Shown here: positions 9,664 through 9,881 of the stretch, in pieces
How the letters are laid out: every line of letters starts with the position of its first letter
Numbering within the stretch: the stretch's first letter is position 1
Source of the DNA: an uncultured archaeon
GTDB taxonomy: Archaea; Aenigmatarchaeota; Aenigmatarchaeia; Aenigmatarchaeales; DAIDAN01
Assembly: GCA_964545795.1 (NCBI GenBank)
Contig: CAZJGC010000001.1
Span: 72,585-135,733, forward strand
DNA: 63,149 nucleotides
Direction of reading: 5' to 3'
Made by a program: the position numbers and the translations under genes
Notes under the pieces: generated by a model
Told to the model about the DNA's origin: nothing
Seen by the model: the letters and a program-made list of their open reading frames with translations, nothing else
Database searches by the model: none

Positions 9664-9881
9664 TGGTGGACTCGGTGGGATTTGAACCCACAACCTCTAC
9701 CTATTTCATTAAAGTAGGGGATTGCACTTATTGCGCAGTCCCCGTTTTTGCATGCCCCTTTACTAAGGGTTGATAAGGGATTTCATGCTCTGCACTTTCC
9801 CTTATTGGGGTTGTAGGGGATTGCACTTATTGCACAGTCCCCTACTGCGAAGGTAGCGCGCTTCCGTTGCGCCACGAGCCC
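9664..9881 (-). tRNA. tRNA-Ala (anticodon CGC) with encoded CCA and a 143-nt intron at canonical position 37/38 (9703-9845)
   Basis: Acceptor GGGCUCG/CGAGUCC includes the G3:U70 alanine identity pair. D arm GCGC-AACGGAA-GCGC. Anticodon stem CUACC/GGUAG with loop UUCGCA|A. T arm GUGGG-UUCAAAU-CCCAC. Confidence 0.8.

Follow-up and report, generated by a model that had tools for sequence, protein, structure and literature searches.

A tRNA-Ala(CGC) intron composed of tandem hairpin modules that recur in about half of the tRNA genes of a DPANN archaeon

The window analyzed here is a 63,149-nucleotide stretch (C1:72585-135733 of the assembly) from the genome of an uncultured DPANN archaeon of the Aenigmatarchaeota type, whose assembly comprises 768 kb at 35% GC and is 98.7% complete. 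On its minus strand, at positions 9664-9881, lies a gene for tRNA-Ala(CGC). The 36-nt 5' exon (9846-9881) covers tRNA positions 1-37 and has a short D-loop, the 3' exon (9664-9702) runs from A38 to CCA, and between them an intron of 143 nt (9703-9845) occupies the canonical position 37/38, as the original prediction had stated. ARAGORN, run with introns allowed, reports the gene as C1 c[82248,82465], anticodon cgc, i(37,143), and direct reading of the sequence gives the same exons, although both the default ARAGORN run and the Rfam tRNA model overlook it. Removal of the insert leaves a standard cloverleaf with the correct identity elements, G3:U70 and A73, and an encoded CCA, and the cloverleaf is also present in the minimum free energy (MFE) fold. 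The intron had been described as encoding no ORF, and it contains none longer than 32 amino acids wholly within its borders; the longer ORFs that overlap it (35, 41, and 109 amino acids) lack credibility, all of them extending beyond it into exon or flanking sequence. Logan contigs match positions 9445-9811, 9796-9879, and 9854-10200 without a mismatch and so tile the locus, with no sign of mis-assembly, but they come from two samples of one microbial-mat study that is probably the source of the assembly, and therefore do not support it independently. The runs that contain the intron sequence are DNA runs, from two samples of a single study. About 100 nt downstream of tRNA-Ala is a multi-intron tRNA-Ile(GAU) gene (9423-9564, minus strand), with insertions in the D-arm and at 53/54, that scores below the Rfam model threshold, and 13 nt past its CCA is a solitary CCCTTATCAACCC module half-site without a hairpin (9397-9409, minus strand).

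How is this long intron built? It had been described as two near-identical self-complementary copies of about 30 nt flanking a core of about 70 nt that holds another hairpin. That anatomy is correct: the repeat search places the outer copies at 9714-9743 and 9813-9842, each a 30-nt hairpin and 97% identical to the other, and in the 69 nt between them is a hairpin with perfect 8-nt arms. It is the reading as hairpin, core, and hairpin that has to be given up, for the core contains a third copy in register at 9773-9802, with 60% identity and with arms, ATAAGGGA/TCCCTTAT, that are 100% complementary over their 8 nt. The intron is better read as tandem copies, in the order c-a-c, of one hairpin module of about 55 nt, followed by an 11-nt tail. 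In the order of transcription, all on the minus strand, module 1 (9807-9845; covariance model R1 match C1:82391-82429) is a type-c hairpin with the stem GUAGGGGA/UCCCCUAC and a truncated linker, CAACCCC. Module 2 (9744-9806) is a type-a hairpin with the stem AUAAGGGA/UCCCUUAU and a full linker, detected by nhmmer at 6.6e-17 and by R1 at 70.7 bits, and module 3 (9714-9743) is again a type-c hairpin, 97% identical to module 1 and lacking a linker. The position-specific 3' tail, UUUAAUGAAAU, occupies 9703-9713.

An HMM made from core copies matches the outer units too and, together with the covarying stems, indicates that the core hairpin is homologous to the outer ones. Across 23 aligned units, every one has an 8-bp stem, a top of 15-17 nt, 11 invariant columns (several of them in the loop), and the linker CAACCC..UGAAGAGCAUGAAA. 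Three subtypes can be discerned: a, AAUAAGGGA...UCCCUUAU; b, AAUAAGGGG...CCCCUUAU; and c, GUAGGGGA...UCCCCUAC. Three stem pairs show covariation, from AU to GC, and 85% of stem cells are paired compared with 29-47% when the partner strand is slid. On the transcribed strand a few G-U pairs occur in the stems, and A-C mismatches are absent. The complete pre-tRNA-Ala has an MFE of about -88.4 to -88.8 kcal/mol, compared with -61.8 +/- 4.5 for shuffled sequences (z = -5.97; 0 of 200 as good), a stability that is not due to chance. The unconstrained MFE structure consists of the cloverleaf and three independent hairpins.

A long, structured intron at the canonical position calls to mind the C/D-box introns of tRNA-Trp in Haloferax and Pyrococcus, and a guide RNA was one of the functions originally suggested. 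The length of the Ala intron is similar to that of the tRNA-Trp intron of about 100 nt, and a guide encoded within an intron has been described before (Singh et al. 2004, as listed in PMC4090602). In the Ala intron, however, inspection by eye finds neither a RUGAUGA/CUGA box pair nor an ACA box with a pseudouridylation pocket, the Rfam search gives no snoRNA family match within the intron at E values up to 5 or at the gathering score, and antisense matches elsewhere in the genome do not exceed 12 nt. The module hairpins, of 30-33 nt and without an internal pocket, do not resemble the hairpins of about 60-70 nt, with pocket, K-turn or K-loop, and ACA, of H/ACA RNAs. A K-turn or K-loop in the module hairpin was considered and rejected on inspection, as the 3-nt bulge is not followed by G-A/A-G. 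The one snoRNA row, sn2903 (E 4.4), lies outside the intron, about 65 nt from the tRNA-Ala gene, and a weak, sub-threshold match to HPnc0260 is likewise outside the intron. Unlike the tRNA-Trp introns, the Ala intron lacks C/D boxes and guide complementarity and is not conserved outside a single genome. That it carries a C/D-box or H/ACA guide RNA is thus extremely improbable. Nor is it a self-splicing group I or II intron, which would have a core of at least 200 nt and often an ORF: it is 143 nt long, has no credible ORF, and matches no Rfam family.

The homology search that had been proposed for the intron finds its modules throughout the genome. The 39 core-type and nine outer-type nhmmer matches merge into 43 modules, and covariance model R1 finds 39. 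A census of tRNA genes anchored on the acceptor stem, T-arm, and CCA gives 35 candidates, of which 34 are interrupted and just five pass the Rfam tRNA model. Because standard finders detect about five of at least 35 tRNA genes, annotations of such genomes miss most tRNAs. The window contains two more interrupted tRNA genes in tandem, at 20319-20420 and 20462-20594 (both minus strand), of which only the first passes the Rfam gathering score. Thirty-one of the 43 modules lie inside 16 of the 35 tRNA genes, every one in the sense orientation. Most of these are at T-loop position 59/60, where one to five tandem units are inserted after GGTTCAA(A), and module-bearing introns occur at three positions altogether, 37/38, 53/54, and 59/60. 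The number of modules (1 to 5 per intron) and their order vary freely. In the window itself, the T-loop intron of another tRNA (gene 54617-54855) consists of three modules in the order b-a-b (54692-54827, plus strand), identified by nhmmer and the covariance model. Module 2 of the Ala intron is of the type found in T-loop introns, type a; type-c modules are absent from T-loop introns, so the Ala intron is no simple copy of one of them. Elsewhere, type-c modules at 37/38 are found only in tRNA-Gly(UCC) on contig C9. In that gene (C9:8800-9174, minus strand; L022), at least three type-c units at 37/38 enclose an N run, in all probability a scaffold gap to which the repeats gave rise.

The remaining 12 modules are found in a tRNA leader (three), a trailer (two), and a free-standing site (two or three), and the rest are in tRNA genes cut by contig ends and in a fragment on contig C4. 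The leader copy, upstream of tRNA-Leu at C1:63976-64107, is a 132-nt c-a-c unit 94% identical to nt 1-132 of the Ala intron; its identity begins exactly at intron nt 1 and stops at the last hairpin. The two hairpins of the Ala intron (9714-9743 and 9813-9842) both have the loop AUAAG, and both of those in the leader copy (L016:77-208) have AUAAA. The two units of an element thus carry the same one-base difference, a pattern suggestive of conversion between hairpins within an element or of independent duplication. The trailer copy consists of two modules 3' of a tRNA on contig C6. The free-standing array of two or three type-c modules (C8:144-273, minus strand; L027) is intergenic and near a contig end, and no tRNA is recognizable in or beside it. 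On C4, at 56114-56230 (plus strand; L031), two modules together with a tRNA T-loop and 3' end lie just past an ORF, and a 5' half is absent from the vicinity. This segment has exactly the sequence of the 3' part of the C6:10053-10233 tRNA and is either a scattered piece of a tRNA or one half of a split gene. A separate sequence of about 25 nt, GCGAAAAYCTTTTTTAATCCC..., is common to the regions downstream of tRNAs at C1:~81960, C4:~56240, and C21:~8990, and at C4 and C21 it is followed by the start of a short hydrophobic, pilin-like ORF; it is a repeated gene cassette beside tRNA genes.

A single pairing rule, by which splicing probably proceeds, fits every module-bearing intron: a stretch of four exon bases, stopping 2 nt short of the 5' splice site, can pair with a stretch of four intron bases that stops equally far short of the 3' splice site. 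Each cut would then fall after the second base of a 3-nt bulge. In pre-tRNA-Ala the exon strand of the 4-bp central helix is U32 U33 C34 G35 (9848-9851, minus strand), and its partner is the UGAA of the tail (9705-9708); the helix UUCG/UGAA includes one G-U pair. The 5' bulge would comprise C36 and A37 (9847 and 9846) and intron G1, and the 3' bulge the last intron bases AU and A38. The outer helix, 3' bulge, and 4-bp helix of a splice motif can all be discerned, and the 5' site opens into a multi-hairpin junction. Since the inner helix is not flush, six unpaired bases, CUUUAA, separating it from the central helix and forming a junction with the three hairpins, the motif corresponds to the relaxed hBH/BHL form. 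When the central helix is forced, the pre-tRNA is 1.4 kcal/mol above the MFE, and in the free ensemble the helix has a pair probability of 2-7%. In the 16 T-loop introns, T54-57 pairs with UGAA, UGAG, AGAA, GGAG, or GGAA (4 of 4 pairs in ten introns and 3 of 4 in six), with bulges AA|A and AG|U; a 53/54 intron pairs CCUG/CAGG, and the tRNA-Gly(UCC) intron pairs CUUC/GAGG.

What might allow modules to be accommodated in both the anticodon loop and the T-loop? Positions 37/38 and 59/60 are equivalent, each directly following the sixth base of a 7-nt loop closed by a 5-bp stem. The anticodon loop of tRNA-Ala(CGC) reads UUCGCA, the T-loops of this genome UUCAAA or UUCGAA (UUCRAA), and the Ala tail, CUUUAAUGAAAU|A, is similar to the tails of T-loop introns, among them UUUUGUUGAGAA|U and UUUUAUUGAAAG|U. 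Because UUCG(CA) mimics UUCR(AA) and the tails are alike, a UGAA tail could, judging from these sequences, serve an anticodon loop as well as a T-loop. The corollary is that only tRNAs with U32-U33-C34-R35 would be able to host an Ala-type tail.

The enzymes expected to process such introns are encoded in the genome. Two adjacent EndA splicing endonuclease genes (C3:49858-50403 and C3:50407-50925, minus strand; L013:1474-2541) encode one alpha-like and one beta-like protein. The alpha-like EndA is closest to PDB 3IEY_A, its nearest relatives are in Candidatus Aenigmatarchaeota MAGs (59-66% identity), and it retains the catalytic Tyr and His, between which is a Lys/Arg-rich 7-residue insert like that of the N. 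equitans alpha subunit; at the position of the M. jannaschii catalytic Lys156 it has Ala (RAH instead of RKK). The second paralog lacks the His and Lys, like a beta subunit. Enzymes of the (alpha-beta)2 and epsilon2 types cleave non-canonical introns (PMC5829648), and from this the substrate range of the present EndA may be taken to include relaxed motifs. The gene for RtcB RNA ligase, the expected exon ligase and intron circularizer, is in the window (18109-19413, minus strand; PF01139, 5.4e-169), and archaeal tRNA introns are circularized after BHB cleavage (PMC12558985). Splicing of pre-tRNA-Ala, as we infer it from the motif and these genes, would begin with cuts by the two-subunit (alpha-beta) EndA at C36-A37|G1 and A-U|A38, flanking the 4-bp helix, in a BHB whose inner helix is replaced by a junction bearing the three hairpins. 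RtcB would then join the exons and probably circularize the intron, giving the junction ...AAUGAAAU^GUAGGGGA....

Other cleavage schemes were considered and rejected. A splice motif within each hairpin, formed by a 3-nt bulge, 4-bp helix, and loop, does not hold up, since 17 of the 21 distinct sequences are mismatched at inner-helix pair 16-27 and an extra base faces the bulge. Unit-by-unit splicing through CAUG/CAUG pairing between successive linkers would have a flush inner helix only in three modules, those with the linker AAGGG(G)CAUG, which include module 2. Trimming of the leader copy by EndA for want of RNase P was also dropped: the archaeal RNase P RNA model RF00373 has no match at E <= 0.01 in the 98.7%-complete assembly, but the protein subunits Rpp29 (C1:35307-35558) and Rpp30 (window 61412-62014, minus strand) are present, and the RNA may be divergent, interrupted, or unassembled.

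An intron twice the length of the tRNA might instead signify that repeat DNA in the anticodon loop has disabled the gene, leaving tRNA-Ala(CGC) a pseudogene. The paralog tRNA-Ala(GGC), with a first exon 97% identical, and the failure to find an Ala(CGC) ortholog in the sister genus are in favor of this reading. Yet the cloverleaf, G3:U70, A73, and CCA are all perfect, the tail able to form the splice motif is present, and with 34 of the 35 tRNA candidates of the census interrupted, tRNA genes of this genome must be spliced. We regard a pseudogene as very unlikely.

The module family is recent and lineage-restricted. Compared with its 39 matches here, covariance model R1 finds three and one in two sister-genus genomes and none in 38 other genomes of the order, many of which are incomplete. 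In the sister genus, copies occupy a T-loop and a D-loop intron, a site immediately downstream of a stop codon, and a spacer between genes. An intron absent from close relatives, or unrelated there, had been named, along with a lack of stable intron RNA, as evidence against the original prediction. The first of these is what the sister-genus tRNA-Ala(UGC) genes show: two genomes lack a 37/38 intron in this gene, and the third has an unrelated one of 32 nt. These genes are not orthologs of tRNA-Ala(CGC), which was not found in the three sister-genus genomes; Ala(UGC) was the only tRNA-Ala found there.

Are the modules RNAs with a function of their own? Under this reading the tRNA genes would be an expression and processing platform, and the modules would act in trans, as a circle or as hairpins, for example as protein-binding or decoy RNAs. 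The stem kept by compensatory changes at three pairs, the 11 invariant alignment columns with several in the loop, and the strand bias of the wobble pairs (G-U present and A-C absent on the sense strand) are what selection on an RNA would leave. The uniform sense orientation of the 31 modules inside tRNA genes, the location of the leader and trailer modules where tRNA processing would release them, and the known circularization of archaeal tRNA introns (PMC12558985) point in the same direction. On the other side, with only three module subtypes, the covariation represents few independent events, and copying between introns would likewise preserve the sense orientation. Furthermore, the modules match no Rfam family, their number (1-5 per intron) and order vary freely, and the family is nearly confined to one genome. 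A function in trans is an unlikely explanation, although selection on the RNA would fit the stem, loop, and orientation data.

The other possibility raised in the original prediction, a mobile intron, is the only one of its suggestions to receive support, and then in altered form. Modules do recur, in at least 19 tRNA-linked loci, in a leader, in a trailer, and at an intergenic site; the intron itself is not the recurring unit. The intron as an autonomous mobile unit would be either a MITE-like DNA transposon, with the hairpin ends as terminal inverted repeats, or a product of reverse splicing and reverse transcription. In favor of such a unit is the 94% identical c-a-c copy in the tRNA-Leu leader, which lies outside exons and starts at intron nt 1, and the ends of the intron, GTAGGGGA...TCCCCTAC, form an inverted repeat that is perfect over 8 nt and imperfect over 14 nt. 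However, there are just two full-length copies, no direct repeat is common to their flanks, and elsewhere the modules recombine in differing orders and numbers; the 98.7%-complete genome contains no RVT_1, Y1 transposase, or TnpB. An IS200/IS605-type palindromic element or MITE was therefore set aside, having inverted ends but neither TnpA/TnpB nor a direct repeat in the flanks, as was retro-copying, for lack of RVT_1 in the genome. We consider an autonomous mobile unit quite improbable.

The reading we prefer, and think likely to be correct, is that this is an ordinary protein-spliced archaeal tRNA intron at position 37/38 whose body is spreading repeat DNA carried as cargo. The modules would multiply by tandem duplication and by copying among those parts of tRNA transcripts that are excised (introns, leader, and trailer), where they would be harmless, and would need no separate function. 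With no reverse transcriptase, Y1 transposase, or TnpB and no direct repeats at the flanks, the simplest reading is that the modules spread as DNA, through recombination, gene conversion, and tandem duplication.

Hairpins with a similar signature occur in other metagenomic archaea. A metagenome scan for the module stem followed by CAACCC returned 39 contigs. Three of these contain sense-oriented T-loop introns in tRNA-Met of close relatives. In most of the others the hairpin has the reverse orientation, terminates an insertion, and abuts a tRNA +1, T-loop start, or 3' half or an ORF start. At eight loci, representing seven distinct sequences, the 21-44 nt after the hairpin are repeated 50-300 nt upstream, and these direct repeats are tRNA ends (the 3' part or the 5' start), T-loops, or gene or ORF starts. 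Loci L144, L151, L156, L157, L164, L167, L177, and L171 have insertions of 67-287 nt that end in GGGTTGATAAGGG-loop-CCCTTAT, and the hairpin at L171 forms the end of a canonical tRNA-Ser intron of 239 nt. The signature common to the metagenomic insertions is the stem ATAAGGG/CCCTTAT with CAACCC after it. Since these common bases were already built into the search pattern, homology between these hairpins and the modules of the genome is a lead rather than a result. The GC-rich metagenomic hairpins could possibly be promoter cassettes, with TTGATAAG at about -30 from the tRNA +1 or ATG, although this would not explain the target duplications. We tentatively entertain, as a suspicion rather than an expectation, that the modules are tolerated copies of an undescribed, protein-less hairpin insertion element of DPANN archaea.

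The closest known cases are the transposed tRNA intron families of Thermoproteales (Fujishima et al. 2010, as summarized in PMC4090602) and the relaxed-BHB introns of DPANN and TACK archaea. The Thermoproteales families, as they are summarized there, share with the present family a recent, lineage-specific spread in a host with a broad-specificity endonuclease. Compared with what that summary describes, the unit here is a hairpin module of about 55 nt, present in 1-5 tandem copies and shuffled among introns, each intron keeps its own tail, there are exon-free copies in a leader, a trailer, and an intergenic site, and the host is a DPANN archaeon. The relaxed hBH/BHL introns of N. equitans and ARMAN-2 (PMC5829648, PMC3239211) resemble those described here in the two-subunit EndA with an insert in the catalytic subunit, in the positions 37/38, 53/54, and 59/60, and in the predicted 4-bp helix and 3-nt bulges with an imperfect inner helix. 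Unlike them, the Ala intron is far longer (143 nt) and has a three-hairpin junction for an inner helix, and its cleavage is predicted. The disruption of tRNA genes in Caldiarchaeum subterraneum (Sugahara et al. 2012, PMC3293823) is reminiscent in another respect, since intron gain and scattered tRNA fragments are there tied to inserted DNA, and the C4:56114-56230 segment is such a fragment here. Unlike in Caldiarchaeum subterraneum, no recombinase-bearing element is associated with it here, and the two full copies have no common direct repeat in their flanks. The present family differs from the known ones in its modular hairpin unit arrayed in tandem, in a tail specific to each position, in having copies free of exon sequence, and in its host lineage.

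A 2026 preprint on Asgard tRNA genes names the arrival of archaeal tRNA introns as the central open problem. In this genome, intron sequence can be seen as a modular repeat, duplicated in tandem, shuffled between introns at three positions, and copied without exon sequence to a leader, a trailer, and an intergenic site. If the metagenomic hairpins are related to the modules, the Ala intron would be a snapshot of the arrival of an archaeal tRNA intron, in which a hairpin element lands in a loop that permits a splice motif, here UUCG imitating a T-loop, and is retained as an intron. The tRNA-Ala(CGC) case provides a concrete, testable rule, the likeness of UUCG(CA) to UUCR(AA), for which tRNAs accept which intron, and the module family is material on the question of tRNA intron gain.
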